A stretch of DNA of 35,552 nucleotides from a virus (taxonomy: Duplodnaviria > Heunggongvirae > Uroviricota > Caudoviricetes), in IMG/VR virus record IMGVR_UViG_2645727510_000007; one strand, given 5' to 3'. Positions 11,901-28,748 of the stretch are shown piece by piece. Both the position numbers and the translations under genes were made by a program. Each line of letters starts with the position of its first letter. Positions within the stretch are counted from its first letter, which is position 1. Under the pieces are notes generated by a model. The model saw only the letters and a list, made by a program, of their open reading frames with translations. It made no database searches and was not told where the DNA came from.

Positions 11901-12194
11901 ATGAAAAAAATGTTGTTTTCTGCCGCTCTGGCAATGCTTATTACAGGATGTGCTCAACAGACGTTTACTGTTGGAAACAAACCGACAGCAGTAACACCAA
12001 AGGAAACCATCACCCATCATTTCTTCGTTTCGGGAATTGGACAGGAGAAAACTGTTGATGCAGCCAAAATTTGTGGCGGCGCAGAAAATGTTGTTAAAAC
12101 AGAAACCCAGCAAACATTCGTAAATGGATTTCTCGGTTTTATTACTTTAGGCATTTATACTCCGCTGGAAGCGCGTGTGTATTGCTCACAATAA
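11901..12194 (+). CDS. bor: Bor lipoprotein (serum-resistance outer-membrane lipoprotein)
   Basis: MKKMLFSAALAMLITGCAQQTFTV... has a lipobox (LITGC) and is near-identical in length (97 aa) and sequence to lambda Bor; SD aggataa upstream; opposite to the lysis genes as in lambda. Confidence 0.9.
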   Translation: MKKMLFSAALAMLITGCAQQTFTVGNKPTAVTPKETITHHFFVSGIGQEKTVDAAKICGGAENVVKTETQQTFVNGFLGFITLGIYTPLEARVYCSQ

Positions 12195-12225: not shown

Positions 12226-12687
12226 CTATCTGCACTGCTCATTAATATACTTCTGGGTTCCTTCCAGTTGTTTTTGCATAGTGATCAGCCTCTCTCTGAG
12301 GGTGAAATAATCCCGTTCAGCGGTGTCTGCCAGTCGGGGGGAGGCTGCATTATCCACGCCGGAGGCGGTGGTGGCTTCACGCACTGACTGACAGACTGCT
12401 TTGATGTGCAACCGACGACGACCAGCGGCAACATCATCACGCAGAGCATCATTTTCAGCTTTCGCATCAGCTAACTCCTTCGTGTATTTTGCATCGAGCG
12501 CAGCAACATCACGCTGACGCATCTGCATGTCAGTAATTGCCGCGTTCGCCAGCTTCAGTTCTCTGGCATTTTTGTCGCGCTGGGCTTTGTAGGTAATGGC
12601 GTTATCACGGTAATGATTAACAGCCCATGACAGGCAGACGATGATGCAGATAACCAGAGCGGAGATAATCGCGGTTACTCTGTTCAT
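12226..12687 (-). CDS. Rz: Spanin inner-membrane subunit Rz
   Basis: From the Met at 12687: [30 protein letters not shown]..., about 153 aa, lambda Rz-like; N-terminal TM then coiled coil. Confidence 0.9.
12285..12467 (-). CDS. Rz1: Spanin outer-membrane lipoprotein Rz1, embedded in Rz in the +1 frame
   Basis: 60-aa ORF with lipobox (VVGCTS) and proline-rich stretch [15 protein letters not shown], wholly inside Rz as in lambda. Confidence 0.85.
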
Positions 12688-13181
12688 TGCTGACCCCACA
12701 AACAGATTTCACGCTCAATCTCACGACGAGTCATGAGACCTTTCCATTGCTTACCGCCAGCATATGTCCAGCGACGTAGCTGATCACATGCGCCTTTGAT
12801 ATCGCCCTGGTTTATTTTGCGAAGAAGCGTCGATGTTCTGAAATTGCCAGCACCCACGTTGTAAACGAATGAGTAAAGAGCGCCGCGCATTGTTTCCGGT
12901 ATATCGACTTTGATGTACGGGTTAATTTGTCTGGCGACCGTGGCAAGGTCTTTATTCAGGAGGGCTTTGCATTCTGCTTTGGTATACGTTTTACCGAGCA
13001 TGATGTCTTTTCCTGTATGCCCGTGACATACAGTCCATACACCAACAATATCTTTGTATGGTATGTAGCTGACACCTTCCAGACCATCGTTACCACTTGG
13101 GCCAGTGATTAACACTGATGCTATAGCAATTGCTCCGCCACCAATAGCAGCAGCAACGGCTTTTCGTAATGATGGAGGCAT
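12684..13181 (-). CDS. R: SAR endolysin (signal-anchor-release lysozyme, phage 21 type)
   Basis: 165-aa ORF with Gly/Ala-rich weakly hydrophobic N-terminus ([20 protein letters not shown]) typical of SAR domains, then a lysozyme-like region; between holin and Rz. Confidence 0.8.
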
Positions 13182-13396
13182 TATTCACCTCTCGCAGCCT
13201 TGCGCTTATCTTCTTTAATCTTGAAATAAAGGTTTGTCAGGTACGTCAGCAGGCCAAATACCAGGCTACCCAGCACACCTATTGCTGCCCACTGTGAGGG
13301 CGTGACTTTATCGAGCAGCTGTAAAAACCAGTAACCGGCACTACCTGCTGAGGTGCCATAGGCGACACCCGTTGTTAACTTATCCATGGATTTCAT
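13181..13396 (-). CDS. S: Pinholin (S21-like holin/antiholin with dual start)
   Basis: From the Met at 13396: [26 protein letters not shown]..., 71 aa with two TM segments and charged C-terminus, closely resembling phage 21 S; the dual-start motif (Met1, Met4) is present. Confidence 0.8.
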
Positions 13397-13879
13397 AACC
13401 CCACCTCGCAGACAAAGCGGGTGTAAATTGAGGGAATACAACGTATCGCAAAAAAGCAGAAACGTAACAGACTCGGAGTCAGTGAATAACTCAGGTATTG
13501 GGTTATCAGCTAATATCGAGACTCAAAAAATGGAAAAACCCGCTCGACGGCGGGTTTAAGCTGTGTGACGAAGTAACCACTCTTAACAGCATAACCAATT
13601 TTTTACGTACGTAAACCACAAAATGATATTTGCGAGAATGCTACCGAGTATTGAAAACACCACTACAAATACATAAGCAAATCTCAACAAATAACCAACA
13701 AATAATTTCCAGTGTTATTTTTAGCCGATTTAAATTGAACCTTCAAATTACAGAGCACTTATAAATAACAGCCGTTAATATAAATTGGCTAATAGATTTA
13801 TTTTTATTCAGCCAAGATCCATGAATAGGATTCGATAGAAAAAAGTTCAGATAAAAATAGAGATCTACTTCACAAATCA

Positions 13880-13970
13880 AACGAGAAACCAAAACTTACA
13901 TCTTGAAATAATCACATTGATTAGATGAATATTTATCGCGCAGTGACATCATTTTTTAATAATAGTTCAA
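13880..13970 (+). promoter_or_regulatory. Putative porin promoter with OmpR-box-like sequence (ttacatcttgaaataatcac)
   Basis: AT-rich region upstream of the porin gene contains a sequence resembling OmpR-binding motifs of ompC/ompF-type promoters. By resemblance only. Confidence 0.35.
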
Positions 13971-13985
13971 AAAAAAGGGCTCACG

Positions 13986-15068
13986 ATGAAAAAATTAACA
14001 GTGGCAATTTCTGCTGTAGCTGCATCAGTACTGATGGCGATGTCTGCTCAGGCAGCTGAAATTTATAATAAAGACAGTAACAAGCTGGATCTATATGGGA
14101 AAGTTAATGCCAAGCACTACTTCTCCTCTAATGATGCAGATGATGGTGATACTACTTATGCCCGTCTTGGCTTCAAAGGTGAAACCCAAATCAACGATCA
14201 ACTGACTGGTTTCGGTCAGTGGGAATATGAATTCAAAGGCAACCGCGCTGAATCTCAAGGCTCCTCCAAAGACAAAACCCGTCTTGCATTTGCAGGCCTG
14301 AAATTCGGGGACTACGGCTCAATCGATTACGGCCGTAACTACGGTGTAGCATATGACATCGGTGCGTGGACTGACGTTCTGCCAGAATTCGGTGGCGATA
14401 CCTGGACCCAAACAGATGTGTTCATGACTGGTCGCACCACTGGTGTTGCAACTTATCGTAACAACGACTTCTTTGGTCTGGTTGATGGTCTGAACTTTGC
14501 TGCTCAGTATCAGGGTAAAAATGACCGCACTGACGTAACTGAAGCTAATGGTGATGGTTTCGGTTTCTCCACTACTTATGAGTATGAAGGATTCGGTGTA
14601 GGTGCAACCTATGCTAAATCTGACCGCACTAATAATCAGGTTATCTACGGTAACAACAGCCTGAATGCATCTGGTCAAAATGCTGAAGTATGGGCAGCTG
14701 GTCTGAAATATGATGCGAACAACATCTATCTGGCTACCACCTATTCTGAAACCCAGAACATGACTGTTTTTGGTAATAACCATATTGCCAACAAAGCACA
14801 AAACTTCGAAGTAGTTGCACAATATCAGTTCGACTTCGGTCTGCGTCCGTCCGTTGCTTACCTGCAATCTAAAGGAAAAGACTTGGGTGCGTGGGGTGAT
14901 CAGGACCTGGTTGAATATATTGATGTAGGTGCAACCTATTACTTCAACAAAAATATGTCCACTTTTGTTGATTACAAAATCAACCTGATTGATAAGAGCG
15001 ATTTCACGAAAGCATCTGGCGTTGCTACCGATGATATCGTTGCTGTAGGTATGGTTTACCAGTTCTAA
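13986..15068 (+). CDS. Outer-membrane general porin, OmpC/OmpF/PhoE family (NmpC/Lc-like prophage porin)
   Basis: 360-aa ORF with signal peptide ([23 protein letters not shown]), classic porin motifs ([17 protein letters not shown]..., C-terminal ...VAVGMVYQF). Sits between Q and the lysis genes like nmpC in DLP12 and lc in PA-2. Confidence 0.9.
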
Positions 15069-15092
15069 TTTGATTACTAAAAGATATGTTGC

Positions 15093-15139
15093 GGGAGGCT
15101 TTGCCTCCCCAACATATAAGTGGCTCCCTCAAGCCACTT
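15093..15139 (+). terminator. Two tandem hairpins downstream of the porin gene
   Basis: gggaggc-ttt-gcctccc (15093..15109) and aagtggct-ccctca-agccactt (15118..15139); no strong U-run, so function is uncertain. Confidence 0.4.
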
Positions 15140-15205
15140 CCTTTAGGAGCACAACCTTGCTTCTAACTATATAAACCTTCTGTTATATATTACCCTTTAT
15201 TTTTG

Positions 15206-15235
15206 GGGGCGTTGCAACGCCCCATTTTTAATAAT
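15206..15235 (+). terminator. Rho-independent terminator (perfect palindrome plus T-rich tract)
   Basis: ggggcgttg/caacgcccc perfect 18-bp palindrome followed by attttta ataattttta on the plus strand. Confidence 0.55.
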
Positions 15236-15256
15236 TTTTAGTAAACAATTGGCATA

Positions 15257-15655
15257 TTAATTAGAGTTATTAACAACGATATCCATCTCTAACCGGATAT
15301 CTAATGCCATTAACATCCCTTCAATTATGCCCTCAGCCTTCTGTAACCTTTTCCCGATATAACCATCAGAGCAGCAATGCTTACCTGCCAGTGACATGAA
15401 TGTCATACCGACTACATAATAATCTACTAATAAATCGTGCAAATCGCTGTTGTTCTTTTTCAGACGGGCCATGCACCCGCAAATAATCATCGCGTCATCG
15501 TCACAACATTGCGGGCGAGATTTTACTTTTGAAGTAATTAATCCCTTAAAACCGGCGGCAATGGACGACCAGGTCACATCTTCATGATTATTAGCCGCCC
15601 ACGCTCCCCAACGCTCAAGAACCATCTGAATATCACGCATCAACTTACTCCACAA
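15257..15655 (-). CDS. Q: Late-gene antiterminator Q (QuuD-like family)
   Basis: 132-aa ORF with Cys-rich putative zinc motif ([12 protein letters not shown] ... HCCSDG); immediately after rusA/ylcG and before the lysis region; resembles DLP12 QuuD. Confidence 0.75.
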
Positions 15656-15725
15656 AAATCAGACCAGAACGCCAATTACAAGCAAAAATCAACAAAACAG
15701 TATTAGTTGATTGTTATCTCTGACT

Positions 15726-17555: not shown

Positions 17556-19058
17556 ATGACTCAAACTCCACTATTACTTGCAATCATATTTTTATTGGTT
17601 GTTCTTGTTCTTTATATAGCTGCAATCAAACGCATCAAAAAAATACAATTAGAATTAAGTGATAGCAATCAAAAAAATGAAGAATACAAATCTCGCTTTG
17701 CAGATTATTTTAATGTAGAAGAAGAATGTAAGAAGCTTATTGAGAAAACAGAGCAAGAATGCTCCATAATAAAAGAAGAATCCCAAAAAGTAAAAGAAAA
17801 TGCCAATAATGAACTAACAAACACCATTGAAAAAATGGATGGTATCAATAAACAAATCCAAGAGCTAAGAAGAACTTATAAAGAGAAGAAAGAAATATAT
17901 GATAAACTAGTAAGGCAAATTTCTATTTATTCAGAAGATGTTGAGCTAGCCGAGCTAGGATTTTACGAACCTCATTTTAATTTTGAAGATTCAGAGCAAT
18001 TTAAAAACAAAATAAAATCCATCAGGGATGAACAGAAATTAATGCTGCGGGATAAAACCCACTCTGGCGCAGTATATTGTACAACCCAATGGACTGTTGA
18101 AGGCTCTCGAGCAGAGGGTAAAAAAATGACAGACAGAAATATCAGGTTAACTACTAGAGCATTTAATAATGAATGTGATGCTGCAATTAGCAATTGCACG
18201 TGGAAAAATATCACTAAAATGGAAGAACGCATCACAAAGGCATTTGAGGCCATAAATAAACTAAACGAGCAAAATCACATATATATAAACACTAAATACC
18301 TCAATAAAAAACTTGAGGAATTGTGGCTTACCCATGAATATCGTGAGCAAAAACAGAAAGAAAAAGAAGAACAGGCAGAAATAAGGGCACAAATGAGAGA
18401 GGAGGAGCGTGCACAACGAGAAATAGAAAAGGCCATGCAAGACGCAGAGGCAGAAGAGCGCCGTTATAAAAAAGCAATTGAAGCTGCAAGAAAGGAAATG
18501 GAAAAAGTTACTGGTGACATGAAGCAGCGCCTCGAAAATCGCATTGCCGAACTAGAACAGAGTTTGTCGCAGGCTGAATCAAAGCATCAAAGAGCATTAT
18601 CCATGGCACAACAAACCAAACAAGGTCATGTTTATATTATTTCGAACATAGGTTCTTTTGGGGAGAATGTTTATAAAATAGGCATGACACGACGTCTTGA
18701 TCCGCAAGACCGTGTAAATGAGCTCGGTGATGCATCTGTTCCATTTATTTTTGATGTGCATGCTATGATTTATTCGGAGGACGCTCCATCATTAGAAAAA
18801 AAACTACATGATGTCTTCGATAAAAAGAGAGTCAATCTTGTAAATCGTAGAAAAGAGTTTTTCTATGTTACTCTGGATGAGATCAAAGAAGCTCTTAAAA
18901 AACACTCTGATTCAGAAATTGAATTTATTGAGACAGCAGTCGCAAAAGACTTTAATGAGTCATTGGCTATTCGTAATCATGAAAATAAAAAAAGTGACAA
19001 CAACAACTCATCAATTATACCTGAGCGAAAAACCCCAGAGTTTGCAGATGCAATTTAA
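17556..19058 (+). CDS. Membrane-anchored coiled-coil protein with C-terminal GIY-YIG-like (T5orf172-type) domain; DUF4041-like middle region; candidate defence or exclusion moron
   Basis: 500-aa ORF, strongly AT-rich and Lys/Glu/Asn-rich, on the strand opposite the flanking early-right operon. N-terminal TM helix (LLLAIIFLLVVLVLYIAAI), long heptad-rich K/E segments, C-terminal GHVYIISN...VYKIGMT...RVNELG motif. Domain names are from memory, not searched. Confidence 0.8.
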   Translation: MTQTPLLLAIIFLLVVLVLYIAAIKRIKKIQLELSDSNQKNEEYKSRFADYFNVEEECKKLIEKTEQECSIIKEESQKVKENANNELTNTIEKMDGINKQIQELRRTYKEKKEIYDKLVRQISIYSEDVELAELGFYEPHFNFEDSEQFKNKIKSIRDEQKLMLRDKTHSGAVYCTTQWTVEGSRAEGKKMTDRNIRLTTRAFNNECDAAISNCTWKNITKMEERITKAFEAINKLNEQNHIYINTKYLNKKLEELWLTHEYREQKQKEKEEQAEIRAQMREEERAQREIEKAMQDAEAEERRYKKAIEAARKEMEKVTGDMKQRLENRIAELEQSLSQAESKHQRALSMAQQTKQGHVYIISNIGSFGENVYKIGMTRRLDPQDRVNELGDASVPFIFDVHAMIYSEDAPSLEKKLHDVFDKKRVNLVNRRKEFFYVTLDEIKEALKKHSDSEIEFIETAVAKDFNESLAIRNHENKKSDNNNSSIIPERKTPEFADAI

Positions 19059-28604: not shown

Positions 28605-28748
28605 TCCATTTCTCAGATATGGTCGGGTAGCGCGTATACCGAAAAACAACCGAAAGGTTAAGGATACGGGCCGACTTTGCACGGTGTTCAAGTACCTGAC
28701 CGCCCTGCTGAACACAGGGCTATCTGAACAAATGCAAAGGACATAAAA

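Follow-up and report, generated by a model that had tools for sequence, protein, structure and literature searches.

The porin cassette that carries nmpC in the E. coli K-12 prophage DLP12 and lc in phage PA-2 is long known from lambda-like E. coli prophages. In K-12 the nmpC promoter, PnmpC, is active; CRP activates it, and OmpR, IHF and MprA repress it (PMC11677980). Activation by CRP has been described both for nmpC and for ompD (PMC11677980, PMC3105977, PMC5137417). OmpR gives a ChIP-exo peak at nmpC in K-12, with repression as the reported mode (PMC5438342), and knockout of ompR is reported to raise nmpC expression 2.4-fold. The DLP12 porin transcript includes IpeX, a 167-nt RNA that represses OmpC/OmpF (PMC12197685, PMC5069750, PMC8065619). 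The Stx phage 933W makes a 258-nt PR' transcript with an RNase E site at +173; StxS is the 74-nt, Hfq-binding 3' fragment of this RNA (PMC7547250).

We analysed a window of 35,552 nucleotides of phage DNA (IMG/VR record IMGVR_UViG_2645727510_000007), in which the interval 13442-15256 is an intact copy of this cassette. Many E. coli chromosomes, as well as the induced phages PhiR34_1 and PhiR68_2, carry it at 100% identity, and the PA-2 lc record matches it at 92%; some form of it is present in 3918 of 5426 complete E. coli genomes (~72%). Since the cassette, its regulation and its small RNA have been on record since the 1980s-2000s, the interval carries little weight as a discovery. The gene order Q-porin-S-R-Rz-bor equals that of DLP12, and that of PA-2 within its partial record (Rz to lc). 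The porin gene is convergent with Q and divergent from S, and a tRNA scan of the whole window found none. The genes of the neighbourhood, together with the parts of the porin transcript, are as follows.

11901-12194, plus strand: Bor/Iss
12226-12687, minus strand: Rz
12684-13181, minus strand: lysozyme
13181-13396, minus strand: holin S (EssD, S21 pinholin family), first late lysis gene; Phage_holin_2_1 E 2e-35, annotated essD
13986..15068, plus strand: porin gene of the nmpC/lc family; ATG start, 360 aa, from the list of open reading frames
13986-14054, plus strand: signal peptide of the porin, first 23 aa, equal in length to the sig_peptide feature of J02580
14501..15068, plus strand: diverged 3' half of the porin gene by nucleotide identity, a mosaic segment with surface loops L4-L8
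15064..15229, plus strand: 3'UTR of ~166 nt equivalent to the IpeX sRNA, 95.8-96.3% identical to the sequence downstream of nmpC and lc
15206-15229, plus strand: intrinsic terminator, GGGGCGTTGCAACGCCCC + ATTTTT, from a terminator scan
15257-15640, minus strand: antiterminator Q, QuuD allele; Phage_antitermQ E 2e-52, quuD in RefSeq genomes

An earlier note on this DNA had described an intact 360-aa OmpC/NmpC-family porin gene between Q and S on the opposite strand, and this description holds. The reading frame at 13986..15068 is uninterrupted: a frameshift or internal stop, the lesions named in that note as counting against it, was looked for in the window sequence and not found. The product matches PF00267 (Porin_1) over the full profile (E 3e-153; residues 29-360 on profile positions 1-337 of 337) and scores 518 bits against the NCBIfam OmpC subfamily, for which the cutoff is 484. 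PDB chains of OmpK37, OmpC, OmpK36, PhoE and OmpF match residues 24-360 with E-values of 1e-116 to 1e-137. Aligned with OmpC/OmpF, the protein has the hallmarks of a general porin, with a cleavable signal ending in SAQA, a mature AE(I/V)YNKD start, the constriction motif PEFGGD in loop 3 and a C-terminal Phe (VYQF). Its 62-64% identity to OmpC and OmpF suggests a trimeric 16-stranded beta-barrel that forms a pore in the outer membrane. Amino acid identity is 73-80% to the chromosomal OmpD-clade porins compared. Against Lc of PA-2 and K-12 NmpC with IS5 removed, the relatives singled out in the earlier note, it is 91.1-91.4%, with promoter and 3'UTR at ~96%. The RefSeq name 'porin OmpC' for this gene masks the prophage nmpC/lc allele.

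The porin allele has a mosaic structure. Nucleotide identity to K-12 nmpC and PA-2 lc is 95-98% in the 5' half of the gene and in both flanks (upstream region, 95.8-96.5%; 3'UTR, 95.8-96.3%), and 80.1% in the diverged segment at 14501..15068. Among nine phage alleles, amino acid differences cluster at residues ~181-190, 218-233, 268-272, 306-316 and 340-352.

The 3'UTR is strongly structured (-61 kcal/mol, z = -7.4), with four more predicted hairpins besides the terminator. Its predicted length of ~166 nt fits the published 167 nt of IpeX, from which it differs by a few substitutions, including two within the terminator loop and one within that of the first hairpin. The hairpin and T-run at 15206-15229 (plus strand) supply the downstream terminator that the earlier note had described. 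There is no Rfam family for IpeX; Rfam at gathering threshold over the whole window gave neither IpeX nor a late leader, and at E<=1 over 13100-15700 gave only a weak Trp_leader match (E 0.49), which is just the terminator shape of the late leader. IpeX is easily missed, being absent from the features listed for these records. It was overlooked in the earlier note, and it is the published route by which the cassette lowers OmpC/OmpF.

We consider it very probable that this porin cassette is a self-contained moron of ~1.64 kb (13617-15256) lying between the Q gene and the late promoter, with the late element on the other strand upstream of S. It has its own promoter and terminator and a composition unlike that of its neighbours (control region 28% GC), the promoter being that published for the identical K-12 sequence. 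The flank is AT-rich, as had been noted, with 28-30% GC across 13600-13999 as against 42-51% within the porin gene. A sigma-70 promoter in this control region would be activated by cAMP-CRP and repressed by OmpR over its -35, by analogy with K-12. PnmpC would drive the intact 360-aa OmpD-like general porin, and the transcript would continue into the structured IpeX counterpart and end at the intrinsic terminator. The lysogen would make the phage porin while IpeX post-transcriptionally lowers OmpC/OmpF. The altered surface receptors and pores would constitute lysogenic conversion, possibly with exclusion of OmpC/OmpF-dependent phages and colicins. In this scheme CRP/OmpR control, the transcription start site (TSS) and IpeX action are carried over from literature on near-identical K-12 and PA-2 sequences. 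The earlier note's view of the porin as a gene of the lysogenic-conversion type fits the published work on nmpC, lc and IpeX; exclusion, and expression in this particular lysogen, we infer only.

The cassette might instead be intact and silent ('quiescent') in its host, passively carried and without an ordinary phenotype. AT-rich DNA of the GC content of its control region (28-30%) is of the kind silenced by H-NS. The gene is often disrupted by IS elements, as in K-12, the title of Prilipov 1998 calls nmpC of E. coli B 'quiescent', and the three factors OmpR, IHF and MprA are all reported repressors (PMC11677980). Silence is difficult to reconcile with the activity of PnmpC in K-12, where it gives the sole detectable IS5 transposase fusion transcript (PMC11677980), with the anaerobic induction of nmpC in Shigella or with the implication of NmpC in the heat resistance of a food isolate. 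Moreover, variation across phages is confined to the surface loops, with strong conservation of promoter, N-terminal half and IpeX, which argues for selection on an expressed protein. We regard a silent cassette as unlikely and favour the expressed moron.

The late promoter bears on how this moron meets lytic transcription. The earlier note had late transcription from pR' cross the porin antisense, which presumes a pR' just after Q. All late transcripts would then run 1.8 kb antisense through the porin gene; collision or silencing during lytic growth would then hit the expression of porin and IpeX. This is very unlikely. A complete pR'-like element is found at 13616 to 13527 on the minus strand, beyond the porin, with two predicted features.

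13588..13615, minus strand: predicted pR'; -35 TTTACG (13615 to 13610), 16-nt spacer, -10 TATGCT (13593 to 13588), TSS ~G13582
13527..13557, minus strand: predicted tR'-like hairpin terminator, AAACCCGCCGTCGAGCGGGTTT + TTCCATTTTT, ~130 nt before the S start codon

The element contains -35 and -10 hexamers, a conserved initial transcribed sequence (GxTAAGAGTGGTTAC) and the hairpin. It is homologous to and colinear with the PR' (TTTACG-16-TATCAT) and hairpin that directly follow the Q stop codon in 933W, and its hairpin is homologous to the putative tR' annotated in the 933W record Y10775. The 933W promoter so read reproduces the published 258-nt PR' RNA and its RNase E site; because a 258-nt RNA is reported, the first hairpin of 933W is leaky for PR' transcripts. 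The pR' hexamers here match the consensus at 8/12 positions, and the TSS at ~13582 is placed by homology. The late-element segment is matched in 363 phage records. Its place next to Q in 933W recurs in the other Stx/lambdoid phages sampled, and among the annotated Stx-phage matches listed it sits at the Q end.

The sequence beside Q looks different. Q itself is a distant relative of the solved Q21, with 78% amino acid identity to 933W Q and 85% to PhiR55_1 Q; when Q and its downstream sequence are compared by blastn, similarity to other phages ends at or before the Q stop codon. A consensus promoter scan from the Q stop to the 3' end of the porin gene found no promoter-like site, and 15256 to 15069 read by eye holds only poor hexamer pairs with 19-21-nt spacers. 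A remnant like the start of pR' (TTTACT-AAAAAT, 15243 to 15226) lies beside Q without a -10. A pR' at this place would accord with the bracketing of the opposite-strand porin by Q and S and with the usual lambdoid arrangement, in which pR' directly follows Q, as in 933W. The remnant could be counted in its favour, and the hairpin at 15206-15223, which has no T-run on the minus strand, would let such transcripts pass. With an empty scan, no -10 in the remnant and a complete element elsewhere, we rejected it; in PhiR55_1, too, a different convergent gene stands at this position, with a related Q on one side and the same late element on the other.

The late promoter thus most likely lies beyond the porin on the S side, as judged from sequence homology, and late transcription need not cross the porin. 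Since the late element is at 13616 to 13527, the cassette sits between Q and pR'; these are adjacent in 933W and 1.64 kb apart here. Q-modified late transcription would begin at ~13582 and head away from the porin. Antisense transcripts over the porin could still arise during induction, by antiterminated read-through from the early right operon beyond Q. Models of late-gene and moron expression in DLP12-type prophages should put pR' between the porin and S. No empty site for this exact Q allele was found in 2792 E. coli genomes, and none of 5426 E. coli genomes contained the join when searched with a synthetic sequence fusing the 3' end of Q to pR'. A repeat search for flanking direct repeats resembling target sites gave short, chance-level pairs only. 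There is a TTTAC...TAAAAAT similarity at both cassette ends, for which we claim no repeat.

Three control elements were placed upstream of the porin gene.

13903..13940, plus strand: PnmpC; -35 TTGAAA (13903-13908), -10 GAATAT (13927-13932), TSS G13940
13857..13877, no strand assigned: predicted CRP site 1 (AGAGA-N6-TCACA), annotated in J02580 and mapped by alignment
13561..13581, no strand assigned: putative distal CRP site 2, misc_binding 1067-1087 of PA-2 J02580, mapped by alignment

The PnmpC hexamers are candidates by homology. The TSS at G13940 was derived from the Seo 2017 supplement, published 5'RACE and alignment with the Salmonella ompD +1. The supplement puts the OmpR peak centre 43 nt from the nmpC TSS (PMC5438342); we checked its coordinate offset on ompF, and G13940 hangs on taking the '43', printed without a minus sign, as upstream. 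5'RACE of the nmpC start gave 'G' (PMC11677980), and the Salmonella ompD 5'UTR is 69 nt (PMC3333887). CRP site 1 is centred at 13866.5, ~-73 from the TSS and of class-I type; the chromosomal ompD clade has a conserved TCACA half-site 10 bp farther upstream. The distal site overlaps the ~20 nt with which the predicted pR' transcript would begin.

Around 13890..13910 the earlier note had seen an OmpR-box-like motif. A 20-mer of this kind, CTTACATCTTGAAATAATCA, does lie at 13895-13914 (plus strand) with a 14/20 match to ompC box C1 as read from K-12. It spans -45 to -26, overlapping the PnmpC -35, and coincides with the K-12 OmpR ChIP-exo peak, which maps to 13867-13927 (centre 13897), in a stretch identical to that of K-12. 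The match itself does not exceed chance: 77% of dinucleotide shuffles of 13442-13985 give at least one match of 14/20 to any of six ompF/ompC boxes, and a second 14/20 match occurs at 13668 on the other strand. A position weight matrix built from the six boxes found no match, and an OmpR site called from box matching was rejected. It is the published ChIP-exo, and not the motif, that speaks for OmpR here.

The same note had given the porin its own OmpR-like promoter. The promoter, and its place in a region bound by OmpR in K-12, stand; the likeness to ompC does not, since the tandem array of three OmpR boxes upstream of the -35 is absent at PnmpC, which has a single box over the -35, and OmpR is a reported repressor. 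PnmpC is not a promoter of the ompC kind; its reported activator is CRP, as in Salmonella ompD, and its reported repressor OmpR. An OmpR-activated, osmoregulated promoter of ompC type is hardly credible: the 14/20 match to C1 at 13895-13914 and OmpR binding in K-12 are outweighed by one box over the -35 versus three tandem boxes at ~-100 to -40 in ompC/ompF, by a match no better than shuffles, by a reported effect that is repression and by a box sequence that is the -35 block of a CRP-dependent ompD-type promoter.

The region between the porin and S may hold a further start.

13942..13968, minus strand: candidate sigma-E promoter for the lysis cassette, within the porin 5'UTR; GAACTA-16-TCACT, putative TSS ~13937

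The sigma-E hexamers are our own reading of the sequence. The published DLP12 lysis-operon reporter spans this control region; PMC7918800, citing Rueggeberg 2015, gives a '-121 to +650' regulatory amplicon. Its forward primer maps to 14058 to 14039, which puts +1 at ~13937 on the minus strand. The reverse primer has no match within three mismatches, which leaves the -121 end fixed by the forward primer alone. The starts would be back to back, PnmpC at 13940 (plus) and sigma-E at ~13937 (minus). PnmpC, the sigma-E promoter, pR' and the CRP site over the pR' leader could then form one switch, sensing envelope and nutrients, in which porin and IpeX output would be traded against lysis-cassette output. 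Separately, the porin falls into at least three allele classes, A (nmpC/lc), B (the allele here) and C (ev207-type), that differ in L4-L8 only and could be receptor-escape variants. These classes may be swapped by recombination among lambdoid prophages, and the selective pressure on the loops may come from porin-binding phages, colicins or antibodies; loop-restricted classes could bear on phage receptor use and serology. Taken jointly, the switch and the escape variants are a distinctly doubtful reading.

The closest described relative of the expressed moron is lc of PA-2 (J02580), which has the same place and orientation between Q and S. The two share an upstream region (96.5% identical), a 3'UTR (95.8%), the 23-aa signal peptide and the annotated CRP sites, and the first ~180 porin residues are essentially identical. 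Lc has 365 residues, whereas the porin here has 360, and the 3' halves of the genes are only 80% identical; relative to Lc, the porin has 3-aa and 2-aa deletions and substitutions in predicted loops L4-L8. The nmpC gene of DLP12 (qsr') in K-12 is part of the same cassette, with the same neighbours quuD, essD, rrrD, rzpD and borD, and the two promoter regions do not differ within the OmpR ChIP-exo peak. In K-12, IS5 lies near the 3' end of nmpC in a defective prophage, whereas the copy here is intact and belongs to a prophage of which the window holds head, part of tail, replication, immunity and lysis genes. The 3' halves of the alleles differ, and where DLP12 has ybcK/L/M there is a PD-Lambda-1 gene here. 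Relative to IpeX, the sequence from stop codon to terminator is 95.8-96.3% identical and likewise strongly structured.

The closest non-phage relatives are OmpD of Salmonella and its Citrobacter, Enterobacter and Lelliottia orthologues (73-80% amino acid identity among those compared). The ompD clade shares the promoter layout, with a CRP half-site, a GAAACTTAxxxTTGAA block that includes the -35 and an A-rich -10. These genes are chromosomal and have a different signal peptide, whereas the porin here is prophage-borne; the ompD 5'UTR is 69 nt as against ~46 nt here, and the CRP site of the clade is one helical turn farther upstream.

The 933W-type Stx phages resemble this prophage in a homologous Q (78% amino acid identity), a homologous PR' with its first hairpin, and accessory genes between Q and S. 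The homology with the StxS leader is confined to PR' and the initial ~55 nt, in which the first hairpin lies; the 74-nt StxS region is absent here, and with it a leader of the StxS type, in which a 258-nt PR'-tR' RNA yields a 74-nt Hfq-binding 3' fragment. In Stx phages the late strand carries the cargo, which is downstream of PR' and Q-dependent. In contrast, this prophage has its cargo upstream of pR', encoded on the other strand and under its own promoter.

The porin gene is complete, as the earlier note had claimed: its ORF is uninterrupted from the ATG and encodes 360 aa. The protein aligns with Pfam Porin_1 over its full length (E 3e-153) and scores 518 bits against the OmpC subfamily NCBIfam model (cutoff 484), and solved chains of OmpK37, OmpC, OmpK36, PhoE and OmpF align to its residues 24–360 (E 1e-116 to 1e-137). 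The signal peptide (...SAQA↓AEIYNK), loop-3 motif PEFGGD and C-terminal YQF are all present. Since Q and the holin both lie on the minus strand, the porin is convergent with Q and divergent from S; the holin is followed on that strand by a SAR-type lysozyme and then Rz/Rz1. Every sequence feature named by the earlier note is present, including the location between Q and S on the opposite strand, the AT-rich flank (GC drops to 28–30% over 13600–13999) and the downstream terminator.

15257–15640, minus strand: Q, one flank of the porin
15206–15229, plus strand: canonical terminator downstream of the porin
13986–15068, plus strand: porin ORF
13181–13396, minus strand: S21-type holin, the other flank
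11901–12194, plus strand: Bor/Iss, adjoining the lysis genes

A second gene for lysogenic conversion in the same late region is the Bor homologue (11901–12194), which RefSeq calls Iss, the serum-survival lipoprotein.

Far from being new, the gene is the classic porin of prophages. The interval 13442–15256 has 100% identity to stretches of many complete E. coli chromosomes, among them O55:H7 CB9615 (in a DLP12-type prophage integrated at argU, under the label 'porin OmpC'), and to PhiR34_1 and PhiR68_2, phages induced from natural isolates. Matches occur in 3918 of 5426 complete E. coli genomes (2465 with at least 80% of the interval), at up to five places per genome. The comparison with nmpC and lc proposed in the earlier note shows that the interval is 92% identical to the PA-2 lc gene record (GenBank J02580) and that the K-12 counterpart is nmpC of DLP12, split by IS5. 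Amino-acid identity of the porin is 91% with both Lc and NmpC (IS5 excised), 73–80% with the chromosomal porins of the OmpD clade that were compared (Salmonella arizonae, Citrobacter, Enterobacter, Lelliottia and Klebsiella spallanzanii) and 62–64% with OmpC and OmpF. Nucleotide identity to K-12 nmpC and PA-2 lc varies along the cassette.

Upstream region: 96%
5' half of the porin gene: 95–98%
3' half of the porin gene, 14501–15068: 80%
Porin 3'UTR: 96%

Nine phage-borne porin alleles fall into at least three classes.

nmpC/lc type, 365 aa
The type of the porin here, with ev243 and ev099
ev207/ev017/4C10 type

Apart from one PA-2 substitution, all nine share the same first ~180 residues, and differences cluster at residues ~181–190, 218–233, 268–272, 306–316 and 340–352. 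From the topology of OmpF we take these clusters to be surface loops L4–L8, to which indel positions relative to OmpC and OmpF also point. Such variation would be expected of a surface protein facing phages, colicins or antibody.

The earlier note held that late transcription must cross the porin antisense, which is not borne out. The stretch from the Q stop codon to the 3' end of the porin yielded no promoter-like site. Instead, 13616→13534 (minus strand) is homologous to the segment directly after the Q stop codon in the Stx phage 933W, whose PR' adjoins Q. Something matching this stretch is contained in 363 phage records; Stx-phage rows among the matches listed have 77–78% identity and, where annotated, match at the end of Q. 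The 933W segment comprises TTTACG-16-TATCAT, a conserved GATAAGAGTGGTTAC and a hairpin with a T-run. With its TSS placed 6 nt past TATCAT, two published observations come out exactly (PMC7547250): a PR' transcript of 258 nt that runs to the second terminator, and RNase E cleavage at +173 (GU↓AUU); hence the segment is the genuine PR' belonging to that family of Q. The window's Q shares 78% identity with its 933W counterpart, and the equivalent elements are as follows.

13615→13610, minus strand: pR' -35, TTTACG
13593→13588, minus strand: pR' -10, TATGCT
About G13582, minus strand: predicted pR' TSS
13557→13536, minus strand: late-leader hairpin, with a T-rich tail to about 13527
13396, minus strand: S start codon, downstream of pR' and the hairpin

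Homology starts exactly at GTTTAC. Upstream of this point 933W has Q coding sequence and the window has the porin cassette; PhiR55_1, with a Q 85% identical to the present one, has another convergent ORF. The cassette (13617–15256) thus sits between Q and pR', on whose far side late transcripts would start, at about G13582, and run away from the porin. The only possible source of porin antisense transcription could be early right operon read-through past Q during induction. This Q allele is joined directly to pR' in 0 of 2792 complete E. coli genomes; the association is thus a fixed one in this lineage.

Both cassette ends carry, on the minus strand, TTTAC then TAAAAA(A)T (TTTACTAAAAAT adjoining Q, 15226–15243; TTTACGTACGTAAAAAAT at pR', 13596–13615). 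This pair, too short to tell from chance and not reported by the repeat finder, could be a trace of recombination placing the cassette inside the -35/spacer of pR'. The distal 'CRP site' of the PA-2 record (13561–13581) covers roughly nucleotides +2 to +22 of the pR' transcript predicted here, within a block conserved with 933W, GxTAAGAGTGGTTAC. The block may be a Q-loading or pause region, and 13561–13581 perhaps does not serve the porin as a CRP site.

Accessory genes convergent with Q seem to have settled repeatedly in the interval just past it. PhiR55_1 (L096, 990–1436) has a 148-aa ORF, with no Pfam match, convergent with Q and between Q and the same pR' element. Lambda_2E9 (L088, 1802–2326) has a convergent Blc-type lipocalin gene; before it, just downstream of Q, reading by eye shows a stretch resembling a promoter and a terminator.

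The porin's own promoter was described in the earlier note as OmpR-like. The motif concerned has 14 of 20 positions in common with ompC box C1. A 14/20 match to one of the six ompF/ompC boxes also turns up in 77% of dinucleotide shuffles of the region, and another lies on the other strand; a PWM from those six boxes has no match in the porin upstream region. Judged on sequence alone, the resemblance means nothing. Published ChIP-exo data rescue its location, though not its reading: K-12 OmpR has an nmpC peak at 576106–576166 (mode 'Rep', 43 nt from the TSS), and nmpC expression is 2.4-fold higher in an ompR knockout (PMC5438342). Shifted by +777, an offset verified against the ompF TSS, the peak falls at 13867–13927 (centre 13897), where the window is identical to K-12, and places the TSS at G13940. 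This agrees with the 'G' from 5'RACE (PMC11677980) and with the homologous position of Salmonella ompD +1 (UTR 69 nt; PMC3333887) in our promoter alignment with the ompD clade. With this TSS the box spans -45 to -26 and includes the candidate -35, a placement that fits repression.

13895–13914, plus strand: OmpR-box-like motif
13903–13908, plus strand: candidate -35, TTGAAA, inside the motif
Centre 13866.5, about -73: proximal CRP site AGAGA-N6-TCACA, annotated in the PA-2 record

At PnmpC, CRP reportedly activates at two sites and OmpR, IHF and MprA repress (PMC11677980); ompD is likewise activated by CRP (PMC5137417). The chromosomal ompD clade aligns with the same layout, its TCACA half-site lying one helical turn further upstream and being followed by an invariant GAAACTTATTATTGAA block, the counterpart of the 'OmpR box' here. 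Shared layout, CRP activation and OmpR repression together indicate that the promoter is probably of the ompD type, CRP-dependent and OmpR-repressed. An ompC-type promoter activated by OmpR is rejected. What survives of the earlier description is that the motif, a chance-level match, falls on a mapped OmpR-bound region.

CAGTGGC at 13999–14005 (plus strand), in the signal-peptide codons, is complementary to the 5' seed of RybB, an sRNA that depends on sigma-E. Among the RybB targets cited for E. coli is the nmpC mRNA (PMC3333887).

The DLP12 lysis operon is reportedly controlled by Q, RpoE and Hha, and the same paper uses a '-121 to +650' reporter (PMC7918800). The reporter's forward primer maps to 14058→14039; with this as the -121 end, the reported +1 would lie near position 13937 of the minus strand, within the porin 5'UTR and back-to-back with PnmpC. 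From these positions we infer a candidate promoter.

13968→13942, minus strand: candidate sigma-E-like GAACTA-16-TCACT

Lysogenic conversion, suggested by the earlier note, is indeed the standard view of Lc. In Schnaitman's work, PA-2 reportedly adsorbs to OmpC and its lysogens lose OmpC. NmpC reportedly makes cells more sensitive to certain colicins and phages (PMC11677980). The published route by which the cassette alters the host's own porins, absent from the earlier note, is IpeX, a 167-nt RNA of DLP12 and PA-2 that is transcribed together with the porin and acts as a repressor of OmpC and OmpF (reviewed in PMC12197685; PMC5069750; PMC8065619). The porin 3'UTR (stop codon to terminator, ~15064–15229) is 95.8–96.3% identical to the nmpC/lc downstream regions and folds into four hairpins plus the terminator (z = -7.4 versus shuffles); by this likeness it corresponds to IpeX. 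No IpeX model was found in Rfam, and no ipeX feature among those listed for the K-12 RefSeq stretch.

Elsewhere in the window, 17556–19058 (plus strand) encodes a 500-aa DUF4041 + T5orf172/MUG113 protein (PADLOC defence family PD-Lambda-1, E 9e-198) in a 28–30% GC island replacing ybcK/ybcL/ybcM of DLP12-type prophages. The best full-length matches, in strains CD45 and PS1Thumoskin9, end at ~27308; just to the right, 28621–28709 (plus strand) matches Rfam sRNA-Xcc1 (69 bits, gathering score 53). The CD45 prophage sits at argU, and the right end of the window resembles host mdtA/mdtB. The prophage of the window may occupy an attachment site other than argU.

The feature is thus real, correctly spotted and already known, and its earlier interpretation was partly right. 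Nothing in the cassette would surprise a specialist. The late leader shares no homology with StxS beyond its first ~55 nt. The DLP12 literature already implies two of the details, the placement of pR' past the cassette and the pair of back-to-back promoters, and by every criterion testable here the feature belongs to the nmpC/lc cassette family.
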